Of a stretch of 32,000 nt of DNA, positions 10,023 through 30,971 are shown piece by piece (the stretch's first letter is position 1; the number at the start of each line of letters is the position of its first letter). This DNA is from Candidatus Kuenenia stuttgartensis (GTDB lineage Bacteria > Planctomycetota > Brocadiia > Brocadiales > Brocadiaceae). The stretch is from the NCBI RefSeq assembly GCF_900232105.1, contig NZ_LT934425.1, positions 1,110,001-1,142,000 on the forward strand, written 5' to 3'. The translations under genes were made by a program, and so were the position numbers. The notes beneath the pieces were generated by a model. It had not been told where the DNA came from. It searched no databases and saw nothing but the letters and a program-made list of their open reading frames with translations.

Positions 10023-10028
10023 TTGTAA

Positions 10029-12392: not shown

Positions 12393-12430
12393 GTATCGTG
12401 AGAGTTATTCACCCCTCAATTGTTTCGTGC

Positions 12431-12463: not shown

Positions 12464-12657
12464 AAAATTTTTACCAACAAGAATTATGGTATTAAAAACA
12501 CATTAAGCGACACTTGCAGAGCCTGGATATTTTTAAAGGATTATTTGTTGCCGCTAAAAAAAAGAAATGTAAGCCGGAAATGATTCTATAATGCTGCTTT
12601 ATGTAATAATGTTATCTAACAAATTTTTATTTAATATTACACCCCTATTTGCATAGC

Positions 12658-12704
12658 GTATGGGAGAAGCATTTGCCTGTTTATAGCAAATGCTTCGCCC
12701 ATAC
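12658..12704. other. Long inverted repeat / hairpin (19-bp stem, one mismatch, 9-nt loop) immediately 3' of clpC
   Basis: GTATGGGAGAAGCATTTGC (12658-12676), loop CTGTTTATA, GCAAATGCTTCGCCCATAC (12686-12704). On the plus strand it is followed by TTTTGTT. On the minus strand (clpC sense) there is no U-tract. Confidence 0.6.
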
Positions 12705-12728
12705 TTTTGTTGGCATATCTCAAATTAA

Positions 12729-15209: not shown

Positions 15210-15216
15210 AAAACAC

Positions 15217-16771: not shown

Positions 16772-16808
16772 GCTTTGTCACCCCCATAAATCTTTCTGCG
16801 GGAAAACA

Positions 16809-18107
16809 TTACTTCTTTTCCCATTTTAACAAATCTGTCACCCTTCCTAAAGAACTTTTTTCAGATAATATTTCTTTACGAATCCTATTTTCTTTTTCCA
16901 GACAATCCATGCCATAGTTAACACTAATTTCAGATTCCGCCTGAGGTACTGCCATGAGCCCATCCTCATCTCCGATTATCCAATCCCCCGGCATGATTTG
17001 AATTCCGGAGATATTCAGAGGCACATTAATTTCCCCCAATCCTTTGGGTTCTCCCGCATCAGGCATGACTAATTTTGTATACACCGGAAAATTCAATTGC
17101 TTCATTTCCGCCGTATCGCGAACCGCTCCATAAACTACCAAACCGCTTAATTTTTTTTGTATAGCGCTGTGCGTAGCCAGTTCTCCCCAAACAGCAGGCC
17201 CCGTTCCGCCGGCATCAATTACGATTACATCCCCTTCTTTCGCAATATCTATGGCTTCTACAGGCTTAGCCCAGTCGCCGGGATAGGTTCGAACGGTGAC
17301 GGCAGTGCCTATGAGTTTTATGGAAGGATTTACCGGATACAGCCCTACAATACTTTTCGCGCGATGACGGCCATCGGATATGTTTGCGGTCGAAAGTTTC
17401 ATGAACGCATTCCGGACGTCTTCGCGGGTTACTCTTTTGAAAAAGCCGGTCTGAATTCTTCTGTTTTCTTTAACAGCTTGCCTGATATTGTTTGCCGCAT
17501 CCCTGGCGTTTTCTGATTTACTGATATATCCGCCAACAATTACGATTTGCGCCCCGGCATTGATCGCATCAACAACATTTTCAGAATTTATGCCCCCCGC
17601 GACAGCAACAGGGGTATGCGCATTTTCGCATATGTGCCGTAATACATTAAAAGGTGTTTTTCCGCTCATTTGATCGTCGATTGCGGTGTGGATAGAAATA
17701 TAATCGACGCCGCATTTTTCAACAATTCCGATACGTTCATCAATTGCGTCAGTATCCATAAAATCAGCGCATACTTTTATGCCATAATTTTTACCGGCCA
17801 ACACGCATTCCCGTATCGTTGCACCAGGCGCATTGCCCATTACCACCGCAATATTGGCGCCTGCTTTTGCAGCCATTTCCATTTCTACGCGTCCGGCATC
17901 CATAGTTTTCATGTCAGCAACCAGCATCGTATCGGGAAATATTTCTCTCAGCCGGCGAATGGCATTCATTCCTTCGCTTTTTATAAGCGGGGTGCCTATT
18001 TCCAGCCAATCAGCGCCACCTTCTATTGCCTCACTGGCAACCTTTATCGCCCTGTGAATATCCACAAAATCAAGAGCTACCTGAATAATAGTATGCTTTT
18101 CAGACAT
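16809..18107 (-). CDS. Fusion protein: 3-hexulose-6-phosphate synthase-like (OMP-decarboxylase fold) N-terminal domain plus RraA-like C-terminal domain
   Basis: 432 aa. The N-terminal half (IQVALDFVDIHRAIKVA...WLEIGTPLIKSEGMNAIRRL...VADMKTMDAG) matches the HPS/KGPDC pattern. The C-terminal half (STANISDGRHR..., GDVIVIDAGG...AVWGELAT, GLVVYGAVRD) matches the RraA / HMG-aldolase-like pattern. Confidence 0.75.
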   Translation of the reverse strand: MSEKHTIIQVALDFVDIHRAIKVASEAIEGGADWLEIGTPLIKSEGMNAIRRLREIFPDTMLVADMKTMDAGRVEMEMAAKAGANIAVVMGNAPGATIRECVLAGKNYGIKVCADFMDTDAIDERIGIVEKCGVDYISIHTAIDDQMSGKTPFNVLRHICENAHTPVAVAGGINSENVVDAINAGAQIVIVGGYISKSENARDAANNIRQAVKENRRIQTGFFKRVTREDVRNAFMKLSTANISDGRHRAKSIVGLYPVNPSIKLIGTAVTVRTYPGDWAKPVEAIDIAKEGDVIVIDAGGTGPAVWGELATHSAIQKKLSGLVVYGAVRDTAEMKQLNFPVYTKLVMPDAGEPKGLGEINVPLNISGIQIMPGDWIIGDEDGLMAVPQAESEISVNYGMDCLEKENRIRKEILSEKSSLGRVTDLLKWEKK

Positions 18108-18121
18108 TATTAAAAAAATCC

Positions 18122-18487
18122 TTATTCAAAATACGTTGCGCCACATCGGTCTGATTCCCACGTAGTAACTTTTTCAACCTTTATGCCTGAGGGCATGGCA
18201 CTTGTTAATTCTCTGTAAATCATTCTGGAAATGTTTTCGGTGGTTGGGTTTTCGGCCTTAAAATGTTCCATGTCATTTAAGTACGTATGATCAAATTTTT
18301 TTGTAACGTCTCCGATAAGCTTTTTTGCTTCTCTGAAATCAATCACCATTCCAAGATTGTCCAGCTTTTCCGACTTCAAAACAACCTGAACCTTCCAGTT
18401 ATGGCCGTGAAGATTTTCACACTGTCCTTTATATCCCCGAAGATTATGTGCCGCCGCAAAATCCGTATCGATTATAAGTTCGAACAT
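18122..18487 (-). CDS. queD: 6-carboxy-5,6,7,8-tetrahydropterin synthase (QueD / PTPS family)
   Basis: 121 aa, with the AAHNL...GQCENLHGHNW motif (catalytic Cys plus Zn-binding His residues) typical of QueD-type PTPS. Its stop lies 14 nt upstream of the HPS-RraA start. Confidence 0.8.
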   Translation of the reverse strand: MFELIIDTDFAAAHNLRGYKGQCENLHGHNWKVQVVLKSEKLDNLGMVIDFREAKKLIGDVTKKFDHTYLNDMEHFKAENPTTENISRMIYRELTSAMPSGIKVEKVTTWESDRCGATYFE

Positions 18488-18714
18488 AAATATTGCTCCG
18501 GAAAGAAATGGTTTTTAAAGAAAGGTATTACAAAACGCTGCACTTTTTAGTAAAAGGGACGGGCAATTGGACAAACATTGCTTTTTACCTGAAGCTTTGA
18601 AAAAAGCTTATCCGCGGCAAAATTAAAAGTCAAGGGTTTTAATCGAAAGAAAGAATGTGCTTAACGTCTTTTTATAAAAAAACATAGGATAACCATTCCT
18701 TCATTTTCAATGGC

Positions 18715-20502
18715 TCATTTTCTTTTGAAATGTTTGTACAATTCATCCAAAGAAAGTGATAGTGTCGTCGGCCGGCCATGGGGGCAGTTATTTGTATAGG
18801 CATTGATATTTTTTTTCTTTTCCATGAGTTCTTCTATTTCCCGATACTCTAATCTTTGCCCCGCTTTTACCGCGGCCTTGCATGCCATGATATTGACTAG
18901 TTTATTCATGACGCCTTCATTGCCCTTTCGGGAATCTTCCTCGCCAAAATCATGCGTCAGGTTTTCTATAAATTCTTTTCCATTTAAATGTTTCAGGATT
19001 TGGGGAAAGGAACGAATCATAATGGTATTGCTTCCAAATTCCTCGATCTCTATGCCAATGCCTTCCAGTTGTTCTTTTATGCTTAATACGAAAAAAAAGT
19101 CTTTTGGGTTCAATTCCACAAGTTCCGGGATCAGTAATCGCTGGCGGGGAGATTGAGATGACTGCATTCCTTTCAATATTGCATGGTACAGGATTATTTC
19201 ATGCAAGGCATGCTGGTCTATAATATTCAAACCCTCATTCGTCTCTTCTACAATAAAGGCATTGTGAATCTGAAAATACCTTTTTTTGCCGGAGAAAATC
19301 GCTTTCCCAACAGATATCTCTTCTCTTATGGGCATGGCCGTGGTGTGCTTCACATCCGTAGATGGCCCTGACGCGGGCGTTTTTTCCACTGTTTTTTCAA
19401 AAGGAAATTGTTCCCATAAAGAGGTGTTTCTATGATCAACTGTATCGGTGTTTCCCAAGTCTCTTTGAAATGTTTTTTCCGGCGTCACTATATCAATGGA
19501 TTTGGGCTGTGATTTATTCAAGGCGTCTTTTAGCGTAGAGAGCACATAATTAAAAACAACACTCTTATTCCGGAACCTTACCTCTGTTTTTGTGGGATGG
19601 ACATTGACGTCCACCTCGGACGGTGCAACCGTTAAAAATAAAAATACTATGGGGTATCGTTTGTTCATTAATTTCCCATGGTAAGCGTCGCTGATTGCAC
19701 GGTAAATAGCCGTATCCTTAATATAACGTCCGTTTAGAAAAATAAATTGCAGCCTTCCATTCGCTTTGTTCAGGAATGGCGGTGCAATATATCCTTTGAG
19801 GGAAAACAACTCTTCCCGGAGAAAGGCAGATAAAAGATGTTTTTTCAACTCACTGCCAAAAAATGTCTCAATTCTTTCTATTACTTCCTGAACGGGCGGA
19901 AGGTTAAATACCGTTCTGTTGTTGTGTCTTAACGTAAAATGGATATTCGGATAACACAGGGCAAACCGCGTTAACACGTCTGAAATATAAGACATCTCCG
20001 TCGGCGCCGTTTTCATAAATTTCTTACGCACGGGAGTATTAAAAAAAAGATCCTGCACCTCTATCTGCGTGCCTTCCGGCGCCCCGCATTCTCTCACATC
20101 GCCAATGCGGCCCCCTTCGGTTTTTATTTCTGCGCCACTTATCGCCCCTCTTATTCTCGAAGTAATTTTTGAGTTAGATACCGCACCAATACTGGGCAGG
20201 GCTTCGCCGCGAAACCCCAGTGTGTTTATCGCAAACAAATCTTCCGCGCTGGATAGTTTGCTGGTAGTGTGGCTTCGGAAAACAAGAGCGAGGTCTTCCG
20301 CGTCAATACCAACGCCATCGTCGGATATTCTTATCAGTTTTCTTCCCCCGTCTTCCAGATAAACATCGATCCTCTTTGCCTCTGCATCAATGGCGTTTTC
20401 AATGAGTTCCTTCACAACAGCGGCAGACCTGTCAATTAACTCGCCTGCCGCAATTTTATTAATTACCGACGGAGGAAGAATTTTAACTTTACCCATTTTC
20501 AC
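18715..20502 (-). CDS. mutL: DNA mismatch repair protein MutL (endonuclease type)
   Basis: Intact 595-aa ORF. It has an N-terminal GHKL ATPase (ELIENAIDA, DDGVGI, GFRGEAL) and C-terminal DQHA..., ACKAAVKAG and CPHGRP motifs. Confidence 0.95.
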   Translation of the reverse strand: MKMGKVKILPPSVINKIAAGELIDRSAAVVKELIENAIDAEAKRIDVYLEDGGRKLIRISDDGVGIDAEDLALVFRSHTTSKLSSAEDLFAINTLGFRGEALPSIGAVSNSKITSRIRGAISGAEIKTEGGRIGDVRECGAPEGTQIEVQDLFFNTPVRKKFMKTAPTEMSYISDVLTRFALCYPNIHFTLRHNNRTVFNLPPVQEVIERIETFFGSELKKHLLSAFLREELFSLKGYIAPPFLNKANGRLQFIFLNGRYIKDTAIYRAISDAYHGKLMNKRYPIVFLFLTVAPSEVDVNVHPTKTEVRFRNKSVVFNYVLSTLKDALNKSQPKSIDIVTPEKTFQRDLGNTDTVDHRNTSLWEQFPFEKTVEKTPASGPSTDVKHTTAMPIREEISVGKAIFSGKKRYFQIHNAFIVEETNEGLNIIDQHALHEIILYHAILKGMQSSQSPRQRLLIPELVELNPKDFFFVLSIKEQLEGIGIEIEEFGSNTIMIRSFPQILKHLNGKEFIENLTHDFGEEDSRKGNEGVMNKLVNIMACKAAVKAGQRLEYREIEELMEKKKNINAYTNNCPHGRPTTLSLSLDELYKHFKRK

Positions 20503-20960
20503 ACACTGCCCTAAATCCTAAACAAAAAAAATACTCACAGTAAAAATCTGCGGTAACCCTTTTTTGATATCCTTATTAATAGTAAATTGTCTCTTGGCTT
20601 CTGACACAATACCTTTTTTCATGCTACACAACAAATTTATTAGATGCATTTAACATTGACTATTTATTATAATGCTATTCTAAATTAAATCTTAACATTT
20701 TTATTAAAAAACGCACTTTCCTTATTATAATATTTATCAATAACTTCAGAATCATTGCCGCCGAGTTAAGAATTATTTTACCGAATAACTCCCTTTTGCC
20801 CTGCCAGAAATTGGATATGGGCAGACAGATTTTCTTGCAGCTAATTTAACTAACCCCCGATGAACGGAGATCACAACGAAACATGAAAGTCGTCCGGATT
20901 GGTATTAATATAGTATCTATTGTATTCATAAAGAACTTGTAGTTAATTTTACAATGTTAC

Positions 20961-20976
20961 ATGGAAAGACTTTCAT
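20961..20976. promoter_or_regulatory. Candidate operator: imperfect palindrome ATGGAAAG-A-CTTTCAT 45 bp upstream of glgE
   Basis: The palindrome was read directly. A third ATGAAAG half-site lies at 20883-20889. No known regulator could be assigned. Confidence 0.25.
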
Positions 20977-21020
20977 ATAGAACAACACCGACTTCAAACT
21001 TTTAAATAGCAGGAATATAA

Positions 21021-23006
21021 ATGGAATTTGAAGGAAGAAAAAGGGTAATTATTGAAAACGTAAGACCGCAAATTGATTGCGGTCGTTTTCCAGTAAAACG
21101 AGTAATTGGAGAGAAGGTAGTAGTCCAGGCAGACGTCTTTACTGACGGACACGATGATGTTATCCCTGTTTTATTACAACGTAAGGCCAGCGAAAAGGTT
21201 TGGCTGGAAATACCCATGAAGACTCTGGGAAATGATCGATGGGAAGGAAACTTTACTGTTCGGGAAATCGGCATTTATTATTATACAGTTGAAGGATGGG
21301 TAGATCACTTCACCACATGGAAAAAGGAACTGAAAAAAAAGTATGACGCAGGGCAGGAAACAAGCATGGATATTTTGACAGGCGTTGTCTATATTCAAAA
21401 ATCATCAGCGCTGGCAACAAAGGATGATTCCAAAAAACTTCATGTATTTGCTAATACCTTAAAAACAGAAAAAAATACAGCAGGAGCCCTTTCTCTTGCC
21501 TTTAATGAGGAATTAGCTTCGCTTATGAAAACATGGCCAGACAAAAGTCTGTCAACTCTATATGAAAAAGAATTAGGAGTAGTGGTGGACAGGGAAAAGG
21601 CTCTTTTTAGCGCCTGGTATGAATTGTTTCCGCGTTCCTGTAATTCTGAACAGGAAAGAGGCGGCACATTGAAAGACTGTGAATCACTCATTCCTGAAAT
21701 CGCAAATATGGGTTTTAATATATTGTACTTGCCTCCAATTCATCCTATTGGAATAACGAACCGAAAGGGGAAAAACAATTCCCCTGTCTCACAAAAGGGA
21801 GAGCCTGGAAGTCCCTGGGCAATCGGATCGCACGAAGGAGGGCATACGTCAATACATCCTTCCCTTGGTACAGAGAAAGATTTTCAAGCGCTGATAGAAC
21901 GGGCGAGGGAATATAATATTGATATTGCATTGGATCTTGCGTTTCAGTGTTCCCCGGATCATCCTTATATAAAAAAACACAGGAACTGGTTCAAGATACG
22001 ACCTGATGGTTCAATACAACATGCGGAAAATCCTCCAAAAAAATATGAAGATATTGTTCCCTTTAATTTTGAAACGGAAAACTGGAAAGGACTTTGGCAT
22101 GAGCTGAAAAATGTTGTCTTTTGCTGGATTGAACGCGGGGTTCGTATATTCCGGGTGGACAATCCACATACAAAACCGTTTGCTTTTTGGGAATGGTTGA
22201 TAGGAGAAACACAAAAAATCTATCCGGAGGTAATTTTTCTTTCAGAGGCTTTTACGAGGCCAAAAGTAATGTACCGATTGGCTAAAATAGGGTTTACACA
22301 GTCATATACCTACTTTACCTGGCGGAATACAAAACGGGAACTGACTCAGTATGTCACTGAACTCACACAGGAAGAATTAAAAGAATATTTCAGGCCGAAT
22401 TTCTGGCCAAATACGCCGGACATTTTACCGGAACAACTGCAATATGGAAGAAGACCAGCATTTATAATACGGTTTATCCTGGCAAGCACCCTGTCTTCTA
22501 ATTACGGTATTTACGGACCTGCCTTCGAACTTTGTGTCAGTGAAGCGGTAACCGGTAAGGAAGAATATTTTAATTCCGAAAAATATGAGATAAAACAATG
22601 GAACTTGAACATGCCGGGAAATTTAAAGGATCTCATAACAAGGATAAATCGGATACGCATAGAAAACGCAGCATTGCAGGATACAGGGAATATACGTTTT
22701 TATGAAGTTGATAATGAACATCTTCTCTTCTATGGAAAGACAACAGAAGACCTTTCCAATATTATACTCGTCGTTGTCAATCTGGACCCGCACCATGCTC
22801 AATCGGGCTGGGTCAATGTTCCGATAAAAATATTGGGAATAGACGCAAATCAGTCATACATGGTGCATGATCTGTTGAGCGATGAAAAATACGTGTGGCA
22901 GGGGAAAAAAAACTATGTAGAACTTCAGCCCGATGCCACTCCCGCGCATATTTTCCGAATAAGGAAAAGGCTGAGGAAAGAAACCGATTTTGATTATTAT
23001 ATGTAA
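21021..23006 (+). CDS. glgE: Alpha-1,4-glucan:maltose-1-phosphate maltosyltransferase GlgE
   Basis: Intact 661-aa ORF. The N-terminus (IENVRPQIDCGRFPVKRVIGEKVVVQADVFTDGHD) and FRVDNPHTKPFAFWEWLI are GlgE hallmarks. An AGGAG site precedes the next gene. Confidence 0.85.
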   Translation: MEFEGRKRVIIENVRPQIDCGRFPVKRVIGEKVVVQADVFTDGHDDVIPVLLQRKASEKVWLEIPMKTLGNDRWEGNFTVREIGIYYYTVEGWVDHFTTWKKELKKKYDAGQETSMDILTGVVYIQKSSALATKDDSKKLHVFANTLKTEKNTAGALSLAFNEELASLMKTWPDKSLSTLYEKELGVVVDREKALFSAWYELFPRSCNSEQERGGTLKDCESLIPEIANMGFNILYLPPIHPIGITNRKGKNNSPVSQKGEPGSPWAIGSHEGGHTSIHPSLGTEKDFQALIERAREYNIDIALDLAFQCSPDHPYIKKHRNWFKIRPDGSIQHAENPPKKYEDIVPFNFETENWKGLWHELKNVVFCWIERGVRIFRVDNPHTKPFAFWEWLIGETQKIYPEVIFLSEAFTRPKVMYRLAKIGFTQSYTYFTWRNTKRELTQYVTELTQEELKEYFRPNFWPNTPDILPEQLQYGRRPAFIIRFILASTLSSNYGIYGPAFELCVSEAVTGKEEYFNSEKYEIKQWNLNMPGNLKDLITRINRIRIENAALQDTGNIRFYEVDNEHLLFYGKTTEDLSNIILVVVNLDPHHAQSGWVNVPIKILGIDANQSYMVHDLLSDEKYVWQGKKNYVELQPDATPAHIFRIRKRLRKETDFDYYM

Positions 23007-23020
23007 AGGAGTATCGCTCT

Positions 23021-26000
23021 ATGCCGCCAAAAGAGATGCTTCACGCTGAAGAACCCCTCTGGTATAAGGATGCAATTATTTATGAACTGCATGTAAAGGC
23101 ATTCTACGATTCGAATAGCGATGGGATTGGCGACTTCAAGGGCGTCACGGAAAAGCTGGATTATCTGGAAAATCTCGGCGTAACCGCTTTATGGCTTCTG
23201 CCCTTTTATCCCTCTCCCCTAAAGGATGACGGATATGATATCGCGGACTATTTTGGCATTCATCCCGATTACGGAACATTAAGAGACTTCAAACTCTTTA
23301 TCAAAGAGGCGCATAAAAGAGGTTTGAAGGTAATTACGGAACTCGTTCTCAACCATACCTCCGACCAGCATAAATGGTTTCATGCCGCCAGGAGACCGAA
23401 ACAGAAATCAAAAATGAAAGATTTTTACGTGTGGAGTGATACGTCTGAAAAATATAAAGACGCGCGAATAATTTTTAAAGACTTTGAACATTCCAACTGG
23501 ACATGGGATCCGGTTGCAAAGGCATATTACTGGCATCGTTTCTACTCACATCAACCCGATTTAAATTTTACGAATCCGGCCGTGCAAAAAGAAATGCTCA
23601 GGATTATCGATTACTGGATTGATATGGGAGTCGATGGTTTCCGTCTGGACGCAGTGCCGTATCTGTTTGAAAAGGAGGGAACAAATTGTGAAAATCTCCC
23701 TGAAACCCACGATTTTTTGAAAAAGCTGAGGGCACACGTTGAAAGCACGCACAATAATGTTATGCTCCTGGCAGAAGCAAATCAATGGCCAGAGGATGCT
23801 GTCGTATATTTCGGCAATCAGGATGAATGCCATATGTCGTTCCATTTCCCCCTCATGCCGAGATTGTTTATGTCAATATGGATGGAAGACAGATTTCCGA
23901 TCATTGATATCTTCGATCAAACCCCGCTATTGCCGGAAACATGTCAATGGGCTCTTTTTTTAAGAAACCACGATGAACTCACCCTTGAAATGGTAACCGA
24001 TGAAGAGAGGGACTATATGTACCAGGTATACGCAAGCGATCCCGTTGCAAGAATAAACCTCGGCATCCGAAGACGGCTGGCTCCCCTGCTAGGGAACAAC
24101 AGAAGAAAGATAGAGCTTATGAACGCACTCCTTTTTTCCCTGCCGGGTACGCCCATTATTTATTATGGAGACGAAATCGGGATGGGGGACAATTTTTACC
24201 TTGGAGACAGAAATGGCGTACGAACTCCCATGCAATGGAATGTCGACCGGAATGCTGGATTTTCAAGGGTAAACCCCCAGAAACTCTATCTGCCTATCGT
24301 TACCGATCCGGAATACCATTATGAGGCAATTAACGTGGAAAATCAGGAAAAGAACCACGCGTCACTTCTCTGGTGGATGAAACGGGTAATAGCCATGAGA
24401 AAACGGTATAAGGCATTTGGAAGAGGGAGTATAGAATTTCTTTTCCCTGATAATCCGAAAGTACTCGCATTTATCCGCCATTATCAGGACGAGCATATCC
24501 TTGTCGTCATGAATCTCTCACGATTCTCTCAGGTAGTGGAATTAGACCTTTCAACGTTTTCCGATTGTACGCCGGAAGATGTGTTTAGCGGAAATAAATT
24601 CCCAAAAATAACGAAATCTCCTTATGTACTTACCATTAACAGGCATGATTACTTTTGGTTTCTGATACAAAAAGAAGCGGAAGAATTACGTCTTGCAAAA
24701 GACGAAAGTATCCCTGAATTGAGTATAAACGGAAAGTGGGAAACTGTTTTCCAGGGAAAAACGGCGGTAAAATTGGAAAAAATGATTTTGCCTGTTTATC
24801 TTAAAAAGAGCAGATGGTTCGGCGGCAAGGCATCGGATATTCAAGAAGTCAAAATTATTGAAAATATTTCATTGCAGAAAGACACGCATACCACACAACT
24901 TATCCTGATTGAGGTAAAATATAACGGCAAGGAATCTGATAGGTATGTCCTTTCTTTTTCTTATCTGAGCGGAAGCGAAGCAGAAACAATGCTGCATGAA
25001 AACCCCCAGAAAATTGTGATGAAACTGAAAACAGATGATACTGAAGGGATTGTGTATGACGGCATTTATGATGAAGAATTTCAAAAGTTTATATTGAAAA
25101 TGGCGGTAAACAGATTGTCAGTAAAGGGTACTCAGGGAAGACTTGTCGTTCATACCGGGAAAATGCATAAACAATATAAACTGAAAGAATTGCTTTCAGA
25201 AAAATCATCCGTATTAAAAGCGGAACAGAGCAATTCATCATTACTCTATGGTAAAGAATTAATTTTCAAACTTTACCGACGCCTTTGCGAAGGTATTAAT
25301 CCGGAGTGGGAAATTGGCAAATTTCTAGGCGAGTATACTGCATTCGCCAACGTTCCGGCATTTATAGGGGAAATAGCATATGTGAGAAAGGGAAATCAAC
25401 CGATATCGATCGGTATCCTCCAGCGCTTCATTCCCAATCATGGAGACGCCTGGTCATATACACTTGATTCATTAATGACGTATTTTGACAGGGTCTTTGC
25501 AAAAAAGAATGAAATTCCGGAAATGCCCGTGATGTCTTTTTCCCTTTTAGAAAGTACGTCGCATGAAATACCTTTGCTGTTTAAGGAATTAATTAGCGGG
25601 GTATATCTTGAGATGGCGTCGCTTTTGGGGAAAAGAACGGCCGAATTGCATATCGCGCTGTCAAAAGAAACGGATAACAACGATTTTCGCCCCGAACCGT
25701 TTTCACGGCTGTATCAAAGATCTCTTTATCAATCAATGCAATCTTATCTGAAAAAGGTTTTCGCCTTGCTCAGAAAAAACATGAAAAAATTGCCAGAGAA
25801 TACAAAAGAATCAGTCGATAAATTGCTATTGCAGGAAAACAGAATAATAGAACTCTATAAAAACATCTTTAAAAAGAAAATTTCCGCTTTGAAAATAAGG
25901 ATACACGGCGATTATCACCTGGGCCAGGTTATTTACACTGGAAATGATTTTTTTATTATTGATTTTGAAGGCGAACCGGCCAGGAGCCTTAGCGAAAGGA

Positions 26001-26353
26001 GACTTAAAAAATCCGTATTAAAGGACGTAGCGGGAATGATACGGTCTTTCCATTACGTGTCAAATACCGCTCTCTTGAAACATATCACCATACGCCCGGA
26101 AGATATTCCCGTGTTGGAACCATGGACAAACCTATGGTATCAATATGTGGCAGGAATTTTCTTAAAATCATATATTGAAACGGCAAAAAATACCCACCTT
26201 TTCCCTGAAAATAATGAAGATTTTACCATGCTCCTTACTTCTTTCCTTTTGGAAAAGGCAGTTTATGAACTGGGATATGAATTAAATAACCGCCCGGAAT
26301 GGACATCGATACCCATAAAGGGCATTTTACAACTTTTGGAAACAAACAAATGA
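23021..26353 (+). CDS. treS: Fused trehalose synthase / maltokinase (TreS-Pep2)
   Basis: Intact 1110-aa ORF. The N-terminal GH13 TreS part has WYKDAIIYELHVKAF...DGIGDF, GFRLDAVPYL and NHDELTLE. The C-terminal maltokinase part has RIHGDYHLGQV and FIIDFEGEP. Confidence 0.9.
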   Translation: MPPKEMLHAEEPLWYKDAIIYELHVKAFYDSNSDGIGDFKGVTEKLDYLENLGVTALWLLPFYPSPLKDDGYDIADYFGIHPDYGTLRDFKLFIKEAHKRGLKVITELVLNHTSDQHKWFHAARRPKQKSKMKDFYVWSDTSEKYKDARIIFKDFEHSNWTWDPVAKAYYWHRFYSHQPDLNFTNPAVQKEMLRIIDYWIDMGVDGFRLDAVPYLFEKEGTNCENLPETHDFLKKLRAHVESTHNNVMLLAEANQWPEDAVVYFGNQDECHMSFHFPLMPRLFMSIWMEDRFPIIDIFDQTPLLPETCQWALFLRNHDELTLEMVTDEERDYMYQVYASDPVARINLGIRRRLAPLLGNNRRKIELMNALLFSLPGTPIIYYGDEIGMGDNFYLGDRNGVRTPMQWNVDRNAGFSRVNPQKLYLPIVTDPEYHYEAINVENQEKNHASLLWWMKRVIAMRKRYKAFGRGSIEFLFPDNPKVLAFIRHYQDEHILVVMNLSRFSQVVELDLSTFSDCTPEDVFSGNKFPKITKSPYVLTINRHDYFWFLIQKEAEELRLAKDESIPELSINGKWETVFQGKTAVKLEKMILPVYLKKSRWFGGKASDIQEVKIIENISLQKDTHTTQLILIEVKYNGKESDRYVLSFSYLSGSEAETMLHENPQKIVMKLKTDDTEGIVYDGIYDEEFQKFILKMAVNRLSVKGTQGRLVVHTGKMHKQYKLKELLSEKSSVLKAEQSNSSLLYGKELIFKLYRRLCEGINPEWEIGKFLGEYTAFANVPAFIGEIAYVRKGNQPISIGILQRFIPNHGDAWSYTLDSLMTYFDRVFAKKNEIPEMPVMSFSLLESTSHEIPLLFKELISGVYLEMASLLGKRTAELHIALSKETDNNDFRPEPFSRLYQRSLYQSMQSYLKKVFALLRKNMKKLPENTKESVDKLLLQENRIIELYKNIFKKKISALKIRIHGDYHLGQVIYTGNDFFIIDFEGEPARSLSERRLKKSVLKDVAGMIRSFHYVSNTALLKHITIRPEDIPVLEPWTNLWYQYVAGIFLKSYIETAKNTHLFPENNEDFTMLLTSFLLEKAVYELGYELNNRPEWTSIPIKGILQLLETNK

Positions 26354-26360
26354 TGACAGA
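26314..26360 (+). repeat. Direct repeat copy 1 (47 bp): the 3' end of treS-pep2 plus a duplicated glgB start
   Basis: CATAAAGGGCATTTTACAACTTTTGGAAACAAACAAATGATGACAGA is identical at 47/47 positions to 27166-27212. Confidence 0.95.
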
Positions 26361-26428
26361 TGAAGGAAGAACTTTAACTTTATCTATTTTTGCACACTTT
26401 ACTTAAATAAGATTGGAGATAAAATAAT

Positions 26429-26680
26429 ATGGCAACATTAACAATCGAGTATCCGGATGAAATTTTGGTATCATTAAAAGAAACACAAGACGATTTTTCT
26501 GAAGAGCTGAAAATAGCAGCAGCAGTAAAGCTTTACGAGATGGGGAAACTATCGTCTGGTAAGGCAGCCAGGCTTGCGGGTATGGATAAGATTTCTTTTT
26601 TGAAAATACTTGGTAAATATCAGGTGTCCATATCGACATTAGAAGAATTTAAAGAGGATATGAAAGTTGACATCGGTTAA
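26429..26680 (+). CDS. UPF0175-family antitoxin-like protein
   Basis: 83 aa. The pattern (...AAVKLYEMGKLSSGKAARLAGMDKISFLKILGKYQVS...) is typical of UPF0175 proteins that pair with PIN-like partners. GGAG lies 11 nt upstream of the ATG, and the gene overlaps the next one by 14 nt. Confidence 0.7.
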   Translation: MATLTIEYPDEILVSLKETQDDFSEELKIAAAVKLYEMGKLSSGKAARLAGMDKISFLKILGKYQVSISTLEEFKEDMKVDIG

Positions 26681-27170
26681 AAATATTGTCGTTGTAAACA
26701 CATCACCAATCATCTATTTGTCTGCTATCAATAAAACAGACCTGTTAAAGAAACTTTTTGGCGAAATCTTTATACCCGGTGCAGTAAAACAAGAAATAAT
26801 ATCAGGAGGCAAAGACACCTTCGGTTTTCTGGAAATAAAAAATGAACCATGGATAAAAACTAAGACTATCGAAAATGAATTGGCAAAAAAGTGTCTTCTA
26901 ACGGATATCGATGATGGTGAAGCAGAGGTAATAGTTCTTGCAGAAGAATTAAAAGCGAATATCATCGTTATGGATGACAGATTAGGTAGAAAGGTTGTAC
27001 GGCTCAGAGGTTTTCGTGTTATCGGTACATTGAGATTATTGATAGCCGCTAAAGAAAAAGGAATAATAACGGAAGTAAAGCCGCTGGTTGAAAAGCTTAA
27101 AGAATTCGGCTTCTGGATAAGTGCGGATGTTTATAAAGACGTTTTGGCACGATCAAACGAAATAACATAA
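26667..27170 (+). CDS. PIN-like nuclease toxin candidate (COG2405 / DUF3368-type partner of UPF0175)
   Basis: 167 aa with a TTG start. It contains [33 protein letters not shown] and [10 protein letters not shown], plus the C-terminal [15 protein letters not shown]...FWIS pattern of DUF3368-type proteins. Confidence 0.7.
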
Positions 27171-27212
27171 AGGGCATTTTACAACTTTTGGAAACAAACA
27201 AATGATGACAGA
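27166..27212 (+). repeat. Direct repeat copy 2 (47 bp): supplies the toxin stop codon and the glgB start region
   Basis: Identical to 26314-26360. It contains the TAA stop of the toxin gene (27168-27170) and the ATGATG start of glgB (27202). Confidence 0.95.
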
Positions 27213-29151
27213 AAAAAATAAAACCTGTGAAACGGTTAATACCAGCAAAAGTCTTTTAACAGACCACGACATATATCTGTTTAAAGAAGGAAACCATTTT
27301 CATCTCTATGAAAAACTCGGCTCGCATCTTATAACATTTAATAATGTGAAAGGCGTTTACTTTGCCGTATGGGCGCCAAATGCCGAAAAGGTATCCGTAA
27401 TAGGCGACTTTAACAACTGGAACAAGACATCGCATCATCTCAGGGCGAGAGAAGACAGTTCAGGTATCTGGGAAGGATTTGTTCCCGGCATAGGCGAAGG
27501 AACAATCTATCGCTACCATATTCGTTCACGATACAACAATTACCGTGTTGATAAAAGAGACCCATTTGCCTTCTACGGCGAAACTCCCCCTAACAGCGCT
27601 TCTATAGTGAGGGATTTAACATACACGTGGGGCGATCAGGCATGGATGAAGGAACGGTCAGGGAAAAATAATATCAATGCCCCCTTGTCCGTATATGAAA
27701 TCCATTTGGGTTCGTGGAGGCGGATTCCGGAGGATGGAAACAGATTCCTGACTTACCGTGAAATGGCGCCATATCTCGCGGAATATGTAAAAGAGACGGG
27801 ATTTACACATGTCGAATTACTCCCTGTCATGGAACACCCTTTTTATGGTTCATGGGGATATCAGATAACAGGTTTTTTTTCCCCAACGGGCAGATACGGA
27901 ACCCCGCAGGATTTTATGTATCTGGTTGATTATCTGCACCAGAACGAAATTGGAGTCATTCTCGACTGGGTGCCATCACATTTTCCCTCCGATGAACATG
28001 GCCTTGTTTACTTTGACGGCACACATCTTTATGAACACGCCGATCCGAGGAAGGGGTTTCATCCGGACTGGACAAGTTATATTTTCAATTACGGCAGGAA
28101 TGAAGTACAAAATTTCCTCGTGAGCAATGCCCTTTTTTGGCTGGATAAATACCATATTGACGGATTAAGAGTGGACGCCGTTGCCTCAATGCTGTATCTT
28201 GATTACTCAAGGAAAGAGGGAGAATGGATACCAAACAAATACGGCGGCAGGGAAAATATTGAAGCCGTCAGTTTTTTGAAAAAATGCAACGAGACAATAT
28301 ATCATTTTTACCCCGATGTTCAGACCATCGCAGAAGAATCCACTGCATGGCCCATGGTTTCAAGGCCAACGTATGTAGGGGGGCTTGGATTCGGAATGAA
28401 ATGGAATATGGGATGGATGCACGACACATTAAAATATTTCTCAATCGACCCCATTTACCGGAAATACCACATGAATCAAATTACCTTTAGCATACTGTAT
28501 GCCTTTACAGAAAACTTTGTCCTCCCGCTTTCACACGATGAGGTTGTGCATGGGAAAGGGTCGTTATTGTACCGCATGCCGGGTGATGAGTGGCAAAAGT
28601 TTGCAAATCTCCGGTTGTTATTTGGTTACATGTTCGGACACCCGGGAAAGAAATTACTCTTTATGGGAGGTGAATTCGGGCAGACAAAAGAATGGTATCA
28701 CGAAGAAAGCCTGAGCTGGCATCTCCTGCAATACCCGATACACAAAGGGATGCAGGAATGGGTTAAAGACCTCAACCGCTTTTACAGAAATGAACCCGTA
28801 TTGTACGAAATTGATTTTGAATATACGGGCTTCGAGTGGGTCGATTTCCACGATCTGGACCGCAACATCATAAGTTTCCTGCGAAAGGGAAAGACCGTAA
28901 AGGATCAGATTCTGGTGGTCTGCAATTTTACCCCTGTGCCAAGATACAACTATCGTATTGGAGTTCCATATGGCGGATTCTGGAAAGAGGTATTGAACAG
29001 CGATGCAAAACATTATAATGGAAGCGGACACGGAAATTTAGGCGGAGTAGAGGCAAGTCCGCTGCCTTCACATGGCAGATATTATTCGATTGCACTAACA
29101 CTGCCTCCGCTTGGTATAGTTTTTTTTAAAAGAGAAATGGATGACAAATGA
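27202..29151 (+). CDS. glgB: 1,4-alpha-glucan branching enzyme GlgB (GH13)
   Basis: Intact 649-aa ORF with [45 protein letters not shown] and SHDEVVHGK. Confidence 0.95.
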
Positions 29152-30971
29152 GGATTGGCGCACATTATCTCGGGAACGGAACGTGCGAATTTGTGGTGTG
29201 GGCGCCTTTTCTTAAAAGCGTTGCGGTAAAACTCATTTCACCCGACGAAAGACTGCTCCCTATGAAAAAAGATGAAAAAGGCTATTGGAAGGCTTGTGTT
29301 GAAGATGTATATCCGGGCGCCTGTTATTTTTATCAGCTCGGGGAAAAAACAGACAGGCCCGACCCGGCTTCATATTTTCAGCCTGCCGGAGTGCATCAAT
29401 ATTCACAGGTGGTGGAATTCGACTCCTTCAAATGGAAAGATAGTAAATGGAAAGGGATAGAACTTTCACAATTAATAATCTATGAACTCCATGTCGGTAC
29501 ATTTACTCCCCAGGGCACATTTGACGCAATACTTCCAAGATTAAACTCCTTAAAAGAGTTAGGCGTTAATGCCATTGAATTGATGCCCGTTGCGCAATTT
29601 CCCGGGGAAAGGAACTGGGGATATGACGGCGCCTATCTCTTTGCCGTGCAAAATTTGTATGGTGGGCCGGAAGGCCTTATGAGGCTTGTCAATGAATGCC
29701 ACAAACATGGCATCTCGGTAATTCTTGACGTCGTATATAATCATCTTGGCCCGGAGGGAAATTATCTTGCGGAATACGGCCCGTATTTTACCGATAAATA
29801 CCACACTCCATGGGGAAAGGCCATAAACTTTGATGACGCTTACAGTGACGAGGTTCGTTCATTCTTTCTTCAGAACGCGCTATTCTGGTTTGAAAATTAT
29901 CATATCGACGCCTTGCGGCTTGATGCCATTCACGGTATTTACGATATGGGGGCAAAACATATTTTAGAAGAATTGAAGGAGAAAACGGCAGAACTCTCCG
30001 TTCAAAAAAAGAAAACCTATTATTTAATTGCAGAAAGCAACCTGAATGATACAAAAATAACGCGGATAAAAGAAACCGGCGGTTATGGGATAGATTCCCA
30101 GTGGTGCGATGATTTGCACCATTCCCTGCACACACTCCTTACCGGAGAGATCACAGGATATTATTGCGATTTCGGTGAAACGAAACATCTGGTAAAATCT
30201 CTCGGAGAAGGGTTTGCTTATTCAGGAGAATACTCTCCATTCAGGAAACGACGTCATGGTAACTCTTCGAAAAATTGTCCGCCATCGCAATTTGTCGTCT
30301 TTTCGCAAAATCATGATCAAATAGGCAATCGGATGCTTGGGGAACGGTTATCAACATTGGTTTCGTTCGAGGCGTTAAAACTTGCGGCCGGTGTAATACT
30401 TCTTTCCCCTTATATACCGCTTTTGTTCATGGGAGAAGAATATGGCGAAGAAGCGCCTTTTCTCTATTTTGTCAGCCACTCGGATGTTCCTTTAATAGAA
30501 GCGGTAAGGCGCGGAAGAAAGCATGAGTTTCATGATTTTCAATGGCAGGGCGAACCGCCTGACCCGCAGGACAGTGAAACCTTTTTAACATCAAAATTAA
30601 ACTGGGGAAAAAAGAGACAGGGACATCATAAAGTATTGCTGGATTTTTATAAACATTTAATACATTTGAGGAAAACAATTCCTGCCTTCGCGAATCAGGA
30701 TAAGAACAAACTTTCCGTGTACGGCCTTGAGGATGAAAAGGTCGTGTTTTTGCAAAGAGGAGAGGGAGTGGATAACTCTTTTACCGTATTTAATTTTAGC
30801 GATAGTGAAGTGTCCGTGAAACTTCCCCTTCAGGAAAATCACTGGAAAAAGCTTGTTGATTCATCAGATGAGATGTGGGACGGTCCCGGCTCATTGTTAA
30901 CAGAAAAAACAGGGCAATTTAATCAAATCACTCTGAGAAAACACAGTTTTATTACGTTTATAAAGGAATGA
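29148..30971 (+). CDS. treZ: Malto-oligosyltrehalose trehalohydrolase TreZ (GH13)
   Basis: Intact 607-aa ORF with [62 protein letters not shown] and NHDQIGNR. Its ATGA start overlaps the glgB stop. Confidence 0.85.

Follow-up and report, generated by a model that had tools for sequence, protein, structure and literature searches.

By what route does a predicted toxin-antitoxin (TA) pair with no mobility gene come to lie in the glg operon of Candidatus Kuenenia stuttgartiensis, between two genes that it leaves intact and within an exact duplication of their junction? The window denotes here the whole stretch of DNA that was analysed, 32,000 nucleotides in length. We found that the 47-mer CATAAAGGGCATTTTACAACTTTTGGAAACAAACAAATGATGACAGA occurs in it in two exact copies, at 26314-26360 and 27166-27212, which bracket 805 bp, and the duplication claimed by the original prediction was confirmed in this way by sequence and repeat search. 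Since the bases next to the two copies differ (C and A before, T and A after), the repeat is exactly 47 nt long; it is the sole long direct repeat that the repeat search returned near the locus, and it represents a protein-gene junction, not a tRNA. No third copy was detected even when up to 3 mismatches were allowed (0 expected from 100 shuffles), and the count of two holds both within the 32-kb window and within the +/-10-kb loci.

Layout and content of the insert

The features of the locus, in window coordinates, are the following.

18715-20502, minus strand: mutL, upstream neighbour of the glg operon (Pfam MutL_C, DNA_mis_repair, HATPase_c)
21021-23006, plus strand: glgE, maltosyltransferase, the operon's first gene (Pfam GlgE_dom_N_S and GLGE_C)
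23021-26353, plus strand: treS-mak, trehalose synthase/maltokinase fusion of 1110 aa (Pfam Alpha-amylase, Malt_amylase_C, Mak_N_cap)
26314-26360, plus strand: left 47-nt repeat, with the treS-mak 3' end, its TGA and the first 11 nt of the ancestral glgB start
26350-26406, plus strand: decoy ORF of 18 codons, MMTDEGRTLTLSIFAHFT*, read from the sequence
26361-26402, minus strand: mutL filler, a decayed mutL start-codon region of 42 nt
26403-26428, plus strand: remnant of the native cassette leader, with a ribosome-binding site (GGAG at 26415-26418)
26429-26680, plus strand: predicted UPF0175 antitoxin, 83 aa (COG2886, HTH; Pfam PF03683)
26667-27170, plus strand: predicted DUF3368 toxin, 167 aa (COG2405, VapC-group PIN-like; Pfam PF11848)
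27166-27173, plus strand: 8-nt microhomology CATAAAGG at the right junction, with the toxin stop codon within it
27166-27212, plus strand: right 47-nt repeat, the glgB translation-initiation region and start codon
27202-29151, plus strand: glgB, branching enzyme, intact (Pfam CBM_48, Alpha-amylase, Alpha-amylase_C)

The left repeat copy holds the final 12 codons and the TGA of TreS-Mak (the last 37 nt plus the stop) and bears a C>T SNP at 26343 in some strains, and the right copy holds the ATGATG start of glgB, whose product is named GlgB [Candidatus Kuenenia]; the assignment of the two copies to a gene end and a gene start, as well as the placing of the antitoxin's GGAG site and of the toxin stop TAA (27168-27170) inside the right copy, had been predicted and was borne out by the sequence. 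The decoy ORF begins at the duplicated glgB start (ATGATG), stops 22 nt before the antitoxin ATG and is still open in L149, a contig from a different species-level lineage; any function of it would be conjectural. Within the 805-bp insert, Pfam searches revealed no integrase, transposase, phage gene or recombinase, and no integrase was found among the ORFs from 16271 to 30971 (Pfam and precomputed contig annotations, with ORFs 9381-16284 left aside). The repeat search gave no meaningful inverted repeats near the locus and none at the insert ends, and the predicted lack of inverted repeats, integrase and transposase in the insert was upheld. The neighbours had likewise been called undamaged: treS-mak and glgB are both intact, and the CSTR1 proteome contains TreS and GlgB (rank 359) together with KsCSTR_14710, which by its position is the antitoxin.

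The insert had further been said to carry only a TA pair, and here the pair was verified and the 'only' was not, as the insert comprises the UPF0175 and DUF3368 genes and, in addition, the 42-nt mutL fragment. The homologous mutL start region lies at 20468-20507 and the mutL gene 5.9 kb upstream of the insert. Local alignment of 26359-26398 with 20468-20507 gave 33/40 identities and a score of 26, against a null of 7.3 +/- 1.9, and the filler scored 30 against the same null when aligned with the mutL start of L147; with blastn-short, it matched L147 4697-4730 over 34 nt (88%, E 4e-5) and window positions 20473-20491 over 19 nt (95%). The filler spans about 12-15 nt upstream of mutL plus about 9 of its codons, reading M/I-D-K-V-K-V-L-P-S on the minus strand, and it is of the Kuenenia-clade type, the MGKVK-type N-terminus being specific to Kuenenia-clade MutL. 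It is common to L149, where 38/42 positions are identical. Homology to the sister cassettes in L111, L116 and L124 begins at 26399-26403 (blastn), and a leader of about 40 nt that these three have in common is absent here, the mutL fragment standing in its place. As judged from these alignments, the insert is composite, a mutL fragment followed by a TA core cut back to a 26-nt leader.

We regard the cassette as a predicted type II toxin-antitoxin pair, made up of a UPF0175 antitoxin and a COG2405/DUF3368 PIN-like toxin. The antitoxin matched PF03683 with an E-value of 1e-26 (92.6 bits, cut-off 27.9) and the toxin matched PF11848 with an E-value of 8e-16 (58 bits, cut-off 27.3); the GGAG lies 10 nt 5' of the antitoxin ATG, and the toxin starts with TTG in a 14-nt overlap with the antitoxin gene. 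This antitoxin-first, same-strand, overlapping architecture is also present in relatives. When relatives were aligned, the PIN-like acidic residues E43, D103 and D104 of the toxin proved invariant, and position 11 is N in this subgroup and D in P0050, P0053 and P0068; the COG2405 family has been listed with 2-5 conserved residues and rated '+/-' (PMC5499597). Compared with L149, dN/dS is 0.035 for the antitoxin and 0.395 for the toxin, and such purifying selection, together with the antitoxin in the proteome, lends the predicted TA function indirect support. Literature searches returned no published experimental test of this COG2405/UPF0175 subgroup. The locus resembles the described family (Makarova 2009, PMC2701414; Matelska 2017, PMC5499597) in having both Pfam domains above threshold, the antitoxin first, overlapping frames, products of 83 and 167 aa and tightly conserved relatives, and it differs in that the cassette lacks the leader of its nearest sister cassettes and carries Asn at the first PIN acidic position. 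Related cassettes, 84-91% identical in amino acids and 90-94% in nucleotides, occur with similar ends in at least 4 unrelated contexts; a Brocadia homologue lies between perfect 21-nt direct repeats adjoining an integrase fragment, a copy in a BREX context has no flanking repeat, and the exact toxin and antitoxin proteins were retrieved from this locus only (23-24 contigs per look-up).

A search for plus-strand terminators around the cassette found none, and promoter-like matches there are at background level. Since the cassette has no recognisable promoter or terminator, it is probably co-transcribed with glgE-treS-glgB, and the missing sister-cassette leader likewise suggests that the TA pair is probably read from the host operon.

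Empty sites, precise loss and the L149 lineage

The empty site that had been predicted, one 47-mer with the ATGA overlap, was found in three K. stuttgartiensis contigs (L016, L019 and L020) and in two sister species (L144/L145 and L146), the 47-mer being identical at 47/47 positions in L144 and at 44/47 in L146; distant relatives with the same gene order have treS/glgB gaps of 0-100 nt. A genuine insertion into the formerly overlapping treS-mak/glgB junction is supported by these sequence comparisons. The insert is present in about 17 of the 21-23 sampled K. stuttgartiensis contigs that carry identical GlgB, and the filled allele recurs in many independent assemblies (NCBI, ENA, JGI, Logan) and in CP049055, a closed PacBio genome; locus-tag order, with two genes between glgB and treS, places it in KUST, MBR1 and CSTR1 as well.

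The window comes from a metagenome-assembled genome, L013 is noisy and the Logan family L142/L143 looks chimeric, all of which would suit an assembly artefact, be it a strain-variant chimera formed through the shared 47-mer or empty alleles created by repeat collapse. We nevertheless find this hardly credible. The filled allele is not a chimera, because it is present in the closed PacBio genome, and the independent assemblies and the locus-tag order of the three reference genomes refute the artefact for this allele as well; the chimera that the original prediction had named as an objection is contradicted by CP049055 and by the order of locus tags in KUST and MBR1. Moreover, k=31 contigs run exactly across both junctions in strains where a SNP interrupts the left copy, so that no exact match there reaches 31 nt. 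As for the three empty contigs, a k=31 graph built from filled alleles only would break at the 47-nt repeat, and judging from this graph behaviour they therefore need reads that truly lack the insert (the raw reads behind them are SRR33280780, SRR31916085 and SRR32939174).

The identity of the two copies had been taken as a sign of a recent event, a reading that we abandoned. Given its frequency among the K. stuttgartiensis contigs and its presence in L149, where the copies differ at 5/47 positions, the insertion does not appear from the sequences to be a recent, strain-level event; and since one empty-site species keeps 47/47 positions of the highly conserved 47-mer although its flanks have diverged by about 12%, the perfect match of the two copies is a poor guide to their age. 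The empty contigs L016 and L019 show 0 differences from the filled L005 over the 5.3-kb left flank, and the empty L020 groups with the filled haplotype of the window and L003, with 8 differences from the window in the left flank and 0 in the right, so that empty alleles are nested within two filled haplotype backgrounds. At the level of this allele pattern, the 47-nt direct repeats are shown to permit a precise deletion that restores the ancestral junction.

L149 has the same left junction, mutL fragment and both repeats as K. stuttgartiensis, and comparison of the two revealed that divergence in the insert is about 4-fold lower than in the genes beside it, dS being 0.15 for the antitoxin and 0.11 for the toxin against 0.55 for glgB and 0.54 for treS. 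In a sliding window, divergence was 11-17% in the sequence directly adjoining the insert and fell to 2-8% inside it. The insert's non-coding portion, a clock of only 68 nt and the only non-coding one, differs at 8/68 positions, where about 39% difference would be expected at neutral sites for a dS of 0.55. Lineages with and without the insert are intermingled, the gene trees of treS and glgB disagree, and the cassettes of K. stuttgartiensis, L149 and L111 lie at roughly equal distances from one another, their variable sites forming a mosaic. Gene conversion from paralogous cassettes could account for part of the low dS in the TA core. These data suggest that the insert passed from one Kuenenia lineage to another with no DNA from its flanks, most simply through homologous recombination in the 47-mer.

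Origin of the insertion

The right junction bears on how the cassette was joined to its target. In L111 and L124, which represent two other contexts, the native tail of the cassette reads ACATAAAGGTTAATTTAG and the target at the empty sites reads CCCATAAAGGGCATTTTAC; the two have the 8-nt CATAAAGG in common and agree at 13/17 positions when extended, the comparison being made with sister cassettes 90-94% identical and not with the true donor. In these 8 nt the tail of the toxin itself, ACATAAAGG, coincides with the target, and for this reason the toxin stop lies inside the repeat. Taken from sequence, the 8-nt microhomology is a mark of illegitimate joining. The other two microhomologies, about 2 nt ('GA') on the left and up to 6 nt between filler and cassette, were deduced from orthologues and are ambiguous, because the actual donor of the cassette was not found. 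Between the toxin tail and the right repeat, L149 carries a MITE-like element with CATAAAGG and CATAAAAGG on its two sides, so that the K. stuttgartiensis right junction could be a secondary deletion; a target-site duplication made by the MITE fits better.

We consider it probable that the cassette was inserted once, by an illegitimate event, and that the repeats later allowed its precise loss and the 47-mer its spread. A single recombinase-independent, microhomology-mediated event, an 'insertion with long target duplication', would have entered the 4-nt ATGA overlap of treS-mak/glgB in a Kuenenia-clade genome, bringing in the 42-nt mutL start piece and then the TA core with 26 nt of leader; rejoining to the treS 3' end through CATAAAGG would have left 39-47 nt of the junction copied on both sides. 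Such a pattern would result from serial template switching (MMBIR-like) where a replication fork has broken or stalled, and the signs of it here are the 8-nt right microhomology, the same-orientation mutL filler from 5.9 kb upstream and the 47-nt duplication, the left and middle junctions offering only about 2 and up to 6 nt, which are ambiguous. A foreign fragment joined illegitimately at staggered positions may have produced the same pattern. The product's survival would be explained by selection, since only a junction-duplicating insertion keeps both gene ends, the TreS-Mak C-terminus and stop on the left and the glgB start region on the right. Later, the 47-nt repeats would recombine, losing the cassette and bringing back the ancestral junction, and spread may have proceeded by Campbell-style re-integration of an excised 852-bp circle or by crossovers confined to the repeats. 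It also counts against this account that no circular intermediate or tandem amplification of the cassette was observed, and that a strong addiction module should counter-select precise loss, yet empty alleles exist.

The original prediction put forward Campbell-type integration, in which a small circle with a 47-mer of its own recombined at the junction, the duplication being the region of homology. The topology fits, with an 852-bp unit of insert plus one repeat, and so do the strong conservation of the 47-mer among Kuenenia species, the lower divergence of the insert with boundaries at the repeats, and the contrast between identical copies in K. stuttgartiensis and diverged ones in L149, which recent re-integration or gene conversion would explain. 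As an origin, however, it is contradicted by the 8-nt overlap of the cassette tail with the target, no circle was observed, and because the circle's first gain of the 47-mer, the microhomology and the mutL filler go unexplained, we judge it quite improbable and place Campbell integration only after an illegitimate founding event, where it may well explain how the insert went on to spread among lineages. The filler would be accounted for if the cassette once stood just upstream of mutL and the 47-mer is the remnant of a large tandem duplication: a segment of about 6.7 kb from mutL codon 9 to glgB +11 would have been duplicated, giving the left junction, a deletion between toxin tail and treS 3' end via CATAAAGG would have removed the second glgE-treS, and the original mutL-side cassette would have been lost later. 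This accounts for the direct repeat of the junction and for a filler taken, in native orientation, from the start of the operon's upstream neighbour; the region is rearrangement-prone, the L147 lineage lacking glgE-treS and L149 having other genes upstream of glgE, and microhomology-jointed tandem duplications are common in bacteria. Four events are needed, though, one of them the loss of the first cassette without a scar; neither the L147 spacer nor the one between mutL and glgE in K. stuttgartiensis was found to contain a cassette remnant, and a TA pair adjoins mutL in none of the sampled genomes, which makes this history unlikely.

An ancient vertical insertion before the split of the Kuenenia species, with the empty sites as precise losses and the low divergence due to gene conversion and purifying selection, would agree with the junctions and filler common to K. 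stuttgartiensis and L149, with the near-equidistant, mosaic cassettes and with the precise loss that clearly occurs within K. stuttgartiensis. We think it rather unlikely, as the insert's non-coding stretch, for which no paralogue could serve as a conversion donor, still differs at only 8/68 positions against the roughly 39% expected, divergence shifts sharply at the insert boundaries, and at least 2 independent precise losses in sister species would be required besides those within K. stuttgartiensis. A dedicated mobile element moved in trans, such as a non-autonomous transposon or MITE, an integron cassette or an integrase-borne islet, could be argued from the similar ends of related cassettes in at least 4 unrelated contexts, from the Brocadia homologue between 21-nt direct repeats beside an integrase fragment and from the transposase-rich genomes of K. 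stuttgartiensis (PMC7709395). Against it, terminal inverted repeats are lacking, as are hairpins and attC-like sequences, the left end is a mutL fragment instead of a conserved element end, and the BREX-context copy lacks a flanking repeat, so that such an element is very improbable; a transposon, IS or MITE in particular was rejected on the absence of end inverted repeats, on a 47-nt duplication far beyond the range of transposase target-site duplications and on exact proteins confined to one locus (23-24 contigs per look-up).

Beyond the founding insertion, we tentatively raise the possibility, which we hold to be less than an even chance, that the conserved 47-nt junction acts as a recombinase-free attachment site, the cassette with one repeat excising precisely, either as an 852-bp circle or by recombination of the repeats, and re-entering empty junctions in other Kuenenia lineages by homologous recombination. 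If this is true, an addiction-type cassette would be a self-contained, reversible mobile unit that spreads across species, needs no mobility gene and drags no flanking DNA.

Comparison with known insertion systems

Integrative elements at the 3' ends of tRNA or protein genes resemble this locus in the duplicated host gene end, which leaves the target gene intact in both, and in precise excision via the repeats. They differ in encoding a tyrosine or serine recombinase, which is absent here, and in having defined att sites, the repeat here having arisen by illegitimate joining; a site-specific integrative element was rejected, the insert having no recombinase and its repeat boundary reflecting microhomology joining and not an att core. 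TA cassettes of chromosomal integrons are, as here, small, promoter-poor, placed inside a host transcription unit and found in many contexts, but attC, integron integrase and cassette array are missing at this locus, and a 47-nt duplication is not an integron feature. Since no non-target DNA lies 3' of the toxin stop, there is no room for an attC, and an integron gene cassette was rejected because the toxin stop is inside the target repeat, with no imperfect palindrome and no nearby integrase.

As far as their outlines go, the MMBIR model (Hastings et al. 2009, PMC2621351) and homology-facilitated illegitimate recombination (PMC3240628) have short junction microhomologies in common with this locus. 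MMBIR or serial template switching also provides for a templated filler in native orientation from a few kb away and for a duplication upon re-entry, as seen here. These models rest mainly on human copy-number variants, yeast and transformation experiments, and a role for replication at this locus is putative; Kuenenia is not known to be available in pure culture. Homology-facilitated illegitimate recombination usually deletes target DNA, whereas here the target was duplicated.

The original prediction knew of no described mechanism for such an insertion, a statement that has to be corrected, since insertions with long target duplication have been described for restriction-modification genes: inserts without mobility genes, with target duplications of about 45-100 bp that sometimes overlap 3' gene ends (PMC2853133, PMC3874152). 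A mechanism involving DNA breaks has been suggested for them (PMC2853133). Those cases (Nobusato et al. 2000, Gene 259:99; Furuta, Abe & Kobayashi 2010, PMC2853133) match the present one in an addiction-type pair without a mobility gene and in repeats of more than 30 bp (several of 45-47 bp) that are single-copy in a relative with the empty site. When the features by which Furuta et al. (2010) define them were compared, repeats longer than 30 bp here correspond to one copy in the empty sites (L016, L019, L020, L144, L146), and the insert, defined there as shorter than 20 kb and free of mobility and phage genes, measures 805 bp and contains none; the cargo departs from the definition, being a predicted TA pair in place of restriction-modification genes. 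The locus extends the long target duplication phenomenon to a new cargo class, and as this predicted PIN-type TA cargo has no DNA-cutting activity, the idea of a break made by the element's own nuclease is inapplicable. Further differences from the restriction-modification inserts are the composite build with a mutL filler, the junctional microhomology, the translationally coupled gene overlap as target, and the evidence for repeated precise loss and for interspecies spread without flanks.

Two states of the treS-mak/glgB junction

The 47-mer CATAAAGGGCATTTTACAACTTTTGGAAACAAACAAATGATGACAGA was found in exactly two copies, at 26314-26360 and 27166-27212, with no third copy in the window when up to 3 mismatches were allowed (0 expected by chance), and since the bases bordering the two copies differ, the repeat is exactly 47 nt long. 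This confirms the original observation of an exact 47-bp duplication bracketing a toxin-antitoxin (TA) pair. ORF listing combined with Pfam gave the following genes in and around the 805-bp insert (26361-27165):

21021-23006, glgE
23021-26353, treS-maltokinase fusion (treS-mak)
26429-26680, UPF0175 protein, predicted antitoxin
26667-27170, DUF3368 protein, predicted toxin
27202-29151, glgB
29148-30971, further amylase-family gene

The final treS-mak codons with their TGA form part of the left repeat copy. The right copy contains both the ATGATG with which glgB starts and the toxin stop codon (27168-27170), and a GGAG motif is located 10 nt upstream of the antitoxin ATG. As had been proposed, the insert lacks mobility genes by Pfam and inverted repeats by repeat search. 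The possibility that the filled arrangement is an assembly chimera could be dismissed, since exact-protein look-ups recovered the locus from many public assemblies (GlgB source name on record, 'Candidatus Kuenenia'), including CP049055.1, the closed PacBio genome of Candidatus Kuenenia stuttgartiensis CSTR1 (PMC7709395), and the window haplotype is that of GCA_023384235.1. Moreover, the numbering of the glgB and treS tags, KsCSTR_14690 and KsCSTR_14720, kuste3063 and kuste3066, KSMBR1_1062 and KSMBR1_1059 (supplementary table, PMC7709395), places two genes between glgB and treS in all three reference genomes.

The predicted empty site, a single 47-mer with an ATGA overlap of treS-mak and glgB, was found in contigs L016, L019 and L020 from three sequencing runs, each of which encodes a GlgB identical to that of the window and has no TA pair. 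These are k=31 assemblies, and such contigs should require reads without the insert, because a graph containing only the filled allele would be expected to break at the 47-nt repeat and not to skip it. In agreement with this, the only k=31 contigs to cross the filled allele come from strains whose left copy is interrupted by a C>T SNP at 26343. This SNP, present in L014, L015 and L017, changes Thr to Ile in the TreS-Mak C-terminus and leaves a 46/47 repeat. Empty sites were also present in sister species, L144/L145 (GlgB 93% identical) and L146 (89%), whose flanks share ~88% nucleotide identity with the window and whose single 47-mer matches at 47/47 and 44/47 positions, respectively. Where distant phyla share this gene order, the treS-glgB gap measures 0-100 nt. 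Together, the empty sister species and the short gaps in distant phyla indicate that the compact junction is ancestral and that the TA pair was inserted. The 47-mer is far more conserved than the surrounding sequence, presumably owing to its dual role in coding for the TreS-Mak C-terminus and forming the glgB start region, so the identity of its two copies is weak evidence of youth.

A different rearrangement was seen in the Kuenenia-clade contigs L147/L148 (GlgB 87%; 4720-5000), where glgE and treS-mak are both absent and glgB follows mutL after 281 nt; similarity to the treS 3' end persists in the last ~40 nt ahead of glgB, which indicates a ~5.6 kb deletion at the same hotspot.

Composition and founding of the insert

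The nearest homologues of the toxin occupy unrelated genomic contexts.

Contexts of the nearest toxin homologues (identity to the window cassette)
L111-L115: between a BrxC/PglY-like gene and the next large gene; 91% amino acid, 94% nucleotide identity
L124: short contig from which the context is not readable; 90% nucleotide identity
L116/L117/L123: phage-like region; 87% amino acid identity
Jettenia and Brocadia homologues: genomic islands

Nucleotide homology of these sister cassettes to the window extends only from ~26403 to 27181. At the right end, the native cassette tail common to L111 and L124 is ACATAAAGGTTAATTTAG and the target sequence at empty sites is CCCATAAAGGGCATTTTAC, and the switch from cassette to target in the window falls inside the shared CATAAAGG, an 8-nt microhomology (13/17 when extended). 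This microhomology explains why the toxin stop seems to lie inside the repeat, and it means that the true target duplication measures 39-47 nt. At the left end, a ~40-nt leader common to L111, L116 and L124 is missing from the window insert; the 42-mer at 26361-26402 (TGAAGGAAGAACTTTAACTTTATCTATTTTTGCACACTTTAC), which we call the filler, is the start region of mutL in a decayed copy. It aligns with L147 4697-4730 (34 nt, 88%, E 4e-5) and with the window mutL start at 20473-20491 (19 nt, 95%), with local alignment scores of 30 and 26, respectively, against a null of 7.3 +/- 1.9, and it has the orientation of the real mutL, the operon's neighbour 5.9 kb upstream. Its minus strand reads M/I-D-K-V-K-V-L-P. 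Among 120 MutL homologues, the N-terminus MGKVKILPPS is confined to the Kuenenia clade and none begins with MDKVKVLP, the expected start in a donor lineage, and no sampled lineage matches the filler exactly. The insert is thus composite, consisting of a mutL fragment and a TA core without the sister-cassette leader, and was probably assembled in a Kuenenia-type genome; the earlier description of it as carrying only the TA pair has to be amended accordingly. We considered whether 26361-26402 could be the cassette's own leader and rejected this, as forced alignment gave ~50% identity and blastn-short matched 0/12 other cassette leaders. An 11-nt exact match between the insert start and glgE codons 3-6 (21029-21039) was attributed to chance (~0.5 expected), and it is absent from L149.

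The same arrangement occurs in L149, a metaSPAdes contig of a different species-level lineage, whose GlgB is 91% identical to that of the window and whose exact GlgB protein is found on five contigs. The L149 insert has the same left junction, the mutL fragment (38/42), the TA pair and both repeats, and the shared junction and filler imply that the insertion arose once. From this single origin, the target duplication, the 8-nt microhomology at the right junction, the precise empty alleles, the filler templated by a nearby gene and the lack of a recombinase or inverted repeats, we infer that the founding event was an illegitimate, microhomology-mediated rearrangement, for which two routes fit. 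By serial template switching (MMBIR-like), replication would have left its template at glgB +11, copied 42 nt at the mutL start and then the TA core, and re-entered at CATAAAGG, 47 nt behind the exit point. Otherwise, a foreign fragment would have been joined at staggered positions. A multi-step tandem duplication followed by remodelling would also account for the mutL fragment, but it requires four events, and a search of the mutL-glgE spacer for a TA remnant that it might have left found none. The original reading knew of no described mechanism, yet insertion with long target duplication has been described for restriction-modification systems, including cases with 45-47-bp repeats, some of which overlap 3' gene ends (PMC2853133, PMC3874152). 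The outcome there matches that of the Kuenenia insertion, whereas the cargo here is a TA pair without a DNA nuclease. Our literature search found no direct precedent for TA cassettes with long target duplications or microhomology junctions. The Kuenenia case extends this type of insertion from restriction-modification systems to nuclease-free cargo, which argues that such insertions are made by the host, through repair of breaks or restart of replication, rather than by the cargo.

A metagenome scan with the toxin alignment yielded 20 loci, few of which had usable flanks, too few for statistics on whether TA pairs are generally flanked by duplications; viral collections contained neither a toxin relative nor a filler match. 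In L123 (3273-7381; likewise L116/L117), the 87%-identical cassette lies between two copies (86-95% identical) of a ~1.1-kb segment comprising the 3' end of an AAA_24 gene and a DUF669 gene, with a HicAB pair in the second copy at the place of 99 nt in the first; host or phage DNA is duplicated around a TA pair here too, though in a looser form. In L119 (Brocadia), a perfect 21-nt direct repeat, TGCAACATGATTAATTCAATG, at 5600-5620 and 7137-7157 encloses a UPF0150 (HicB-like) gene and an integrase fragment of 63 aa along with the homologous TA pair, and the unit looks like the remains of a site-specific islet. In the BREX-type context of L111 (~2630-2656) and L112, a perfect hairpin with a 12-bp stem and 3-nt loop, GCACGGACAAAC CCT GTTTGTCCGTGC, is located at the end of the BrxC/PglY-like gene; the 94%-identical cassette starts 4 nt later, and the L111 cassette has no flanking direct repeat.

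Proposed spread between lineages and loss within K. stuttgartiensis

From the ~88-90% raw identity, we had considered the insertion to be as old as the species split, a view that was dropped when synonymous divergence between K. stuttgartiensis and L149 proved to be 0.15 for the antitoxin and 0.11 for the toxin versus 0.55 for glgB and 0.54 for treS. The non-coding part of the insert differs at 8/68 nt, with ~39% expected at neutral sites for a dS of 0.55, and a sliding window gave 11-17% divergence right up to both repeats and 2-8% within the insert. Moreover, the treS and glgB gene trees are discordant and intersperse filled (K. stuttgartiensis, L149) and empty (L144, L146) lineages, with L149 and L144 being sisters in the treS tree at 7% divergence. 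The simplest reading is that the insert spread among already diverged lineages without flanking DNA, which points to recombination confined to the conserved 47-mer. Integration of a Campbell-type circle, originally proposed for the insertion as such, is one way in which this spread could have occurred; for the founding event, we favour the illegitimate rearrangement. The recent event also proposed did not hold up as a strain-level one, given that copy identity is a weak clock and that L149 has a diverged orthologous insert. Its repeat copies differ from each other at 5/47 positions, and the identical copies in K. stuttgartiensis would fit a later re-integration or gene conversion in that species. 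Less probable, in our view, is an ancient insertion in which gene conversion by paralogous cassettes kept the TA core uniform, as no paralogue exists from which the filler could have been converted.

Within K. stuttgartiensis, the empty contigs are not a lineage of their own. L016 and L019 are identical to the filled contig L005 across the 5.3-kb left flank, L020 clusters with the filled haplotype of the window and L003, and the remaining filled haplotypes are at least 30 SNPs away from these backgrounds. The L005 insert has two private SNPs and has therefore been resident in that background, which favours a recent precise loss in L016/L019 over a recent gain in L005.

TA pairs are among the most mobile prokaryotic genes, and to our knowledge the movement of 'naked' chromosomal TA pairs without mobility genes is poorly understood. 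The event described here is unusually well resolved: a natural example with an ancestral empty site, a filled site, a 47-nt target duplication, junctional microhomology, precise loss at the population level and a diverged orthologous copy in another species, in which the templated filler points to the type of genome where the insertion happened. It suggests that, once duplicated, a conserved gene junction can provide a portable patch of homology through which an insert is lost and regained without a scar, and it makes the insert a polymorphic marker within the Ca. Kuenenia stuttgartiensis populations of anammox reactors.

Several variants of the locus were recorded. At the repeat position matching 26343, L149 has a T in its right copy, and at position 7 of the 47-mer the two copies agree within each lineage (G in K. 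stuttgartiensis, A in L149), a pattern that hints at concerted evolution. Between the L149 toxin stop and right repeat copy lies a ~110-nt MITE-like element (8290-8398) that contains a hairpin and ends in perfect 14-nt inverted repeats, GGTAACACTTTAGT; the bordering CATAAAGG and CATAAAAGG look like an 8-9-bp target-site duplication, and one copy of GGTAACACTTTAGT occurs downstream of the K. stuttgartiensis glg cluster (L011 21345-21358). Where mutL would lie upstream of glgE, L149 instead has another pair of small genes adjoining the glg operon (1394-2121), an 85-aa ORF and one for a MazE-like protein of 157 aa. Contigs L142/L143 (Logan SRR9129449, SRR9129454) are filled, and their toxin has residues typical of L111 and L149; they were set aside as a third filled lineage, since their glgB is a patchwork, L144-identical for ~1.2 kb and then K. 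stuttgartiensis-identical, making them probably chimeric k-mer contigs or else a true inter-species recombinant. L013/L029 (GCA_027493735.1), with an internal toxin deletion followed by ~1.1 kb of extra DNA containing two G8C7-10 runs (G8C10 in L013) and a noisy second copy of the toxin 3' end, represent either a toxin-inactivating insertion or a poor long-read assembly, and L013 was set aside as too noisy.

Expression of the TA pair and neighbouring features

UPF0175 proteins have been reported exclusively beside COG2405/DUF3368, predicted PIN-like toxins of the VapC group (PMC5499597, PMC2701414). Residues E43, D103 and D104 of the toxin are invariant and its first acidic position is Asn; a PDB sequence search with the toxin gave nothing significant. 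Neither gene of the pair is disrupted in K. stuttgartiensis or L149, and dN/dS is 0.035 (antitoxin) and 0.395 (toxin). A scan around the cassette found no + strand terminator and no promoter hits above background, and the CSTR1 proteome contains GlgB, TreS and the product of the gene adjoining treS, which its position identifies as the antitoxin. Co-transcription of the cassette with the glg operon is thus predicted as likely, which would wire a stress-type module into a glycogen (GlgE-pathway) operon.

Elsewhere in the window (3178-5071, minus strand; 5927-7326, plus; 7790-8128, minus), an FtsH-like coding sequence is spread over three or more ORFs, with AAA_lid_3, FtsH_ext and a Peptidase_M41 domain in two pieces; two fragments make up a CtpB/S41 protease, and SurE has only 112 aa. 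Either these are pseudogenes or the metagenome-assembled genome from which the window comes contains indel errors. A DDE transposase fragment (DDE_Tnp_1_4 / DDE_Tnp_1) lies at 8714-9049 on the minus strand, ~17 kb from the insert; K. stuttgartiensis genomes are reported to be unusually transposase-rich (PMC7709395). At the left boundary of the insert, an 18-codon decoy ORF (26350-26406) begins at the duplicated glgB start of the left repeat copy and stops 22 nt short of the antitoxin ATG.
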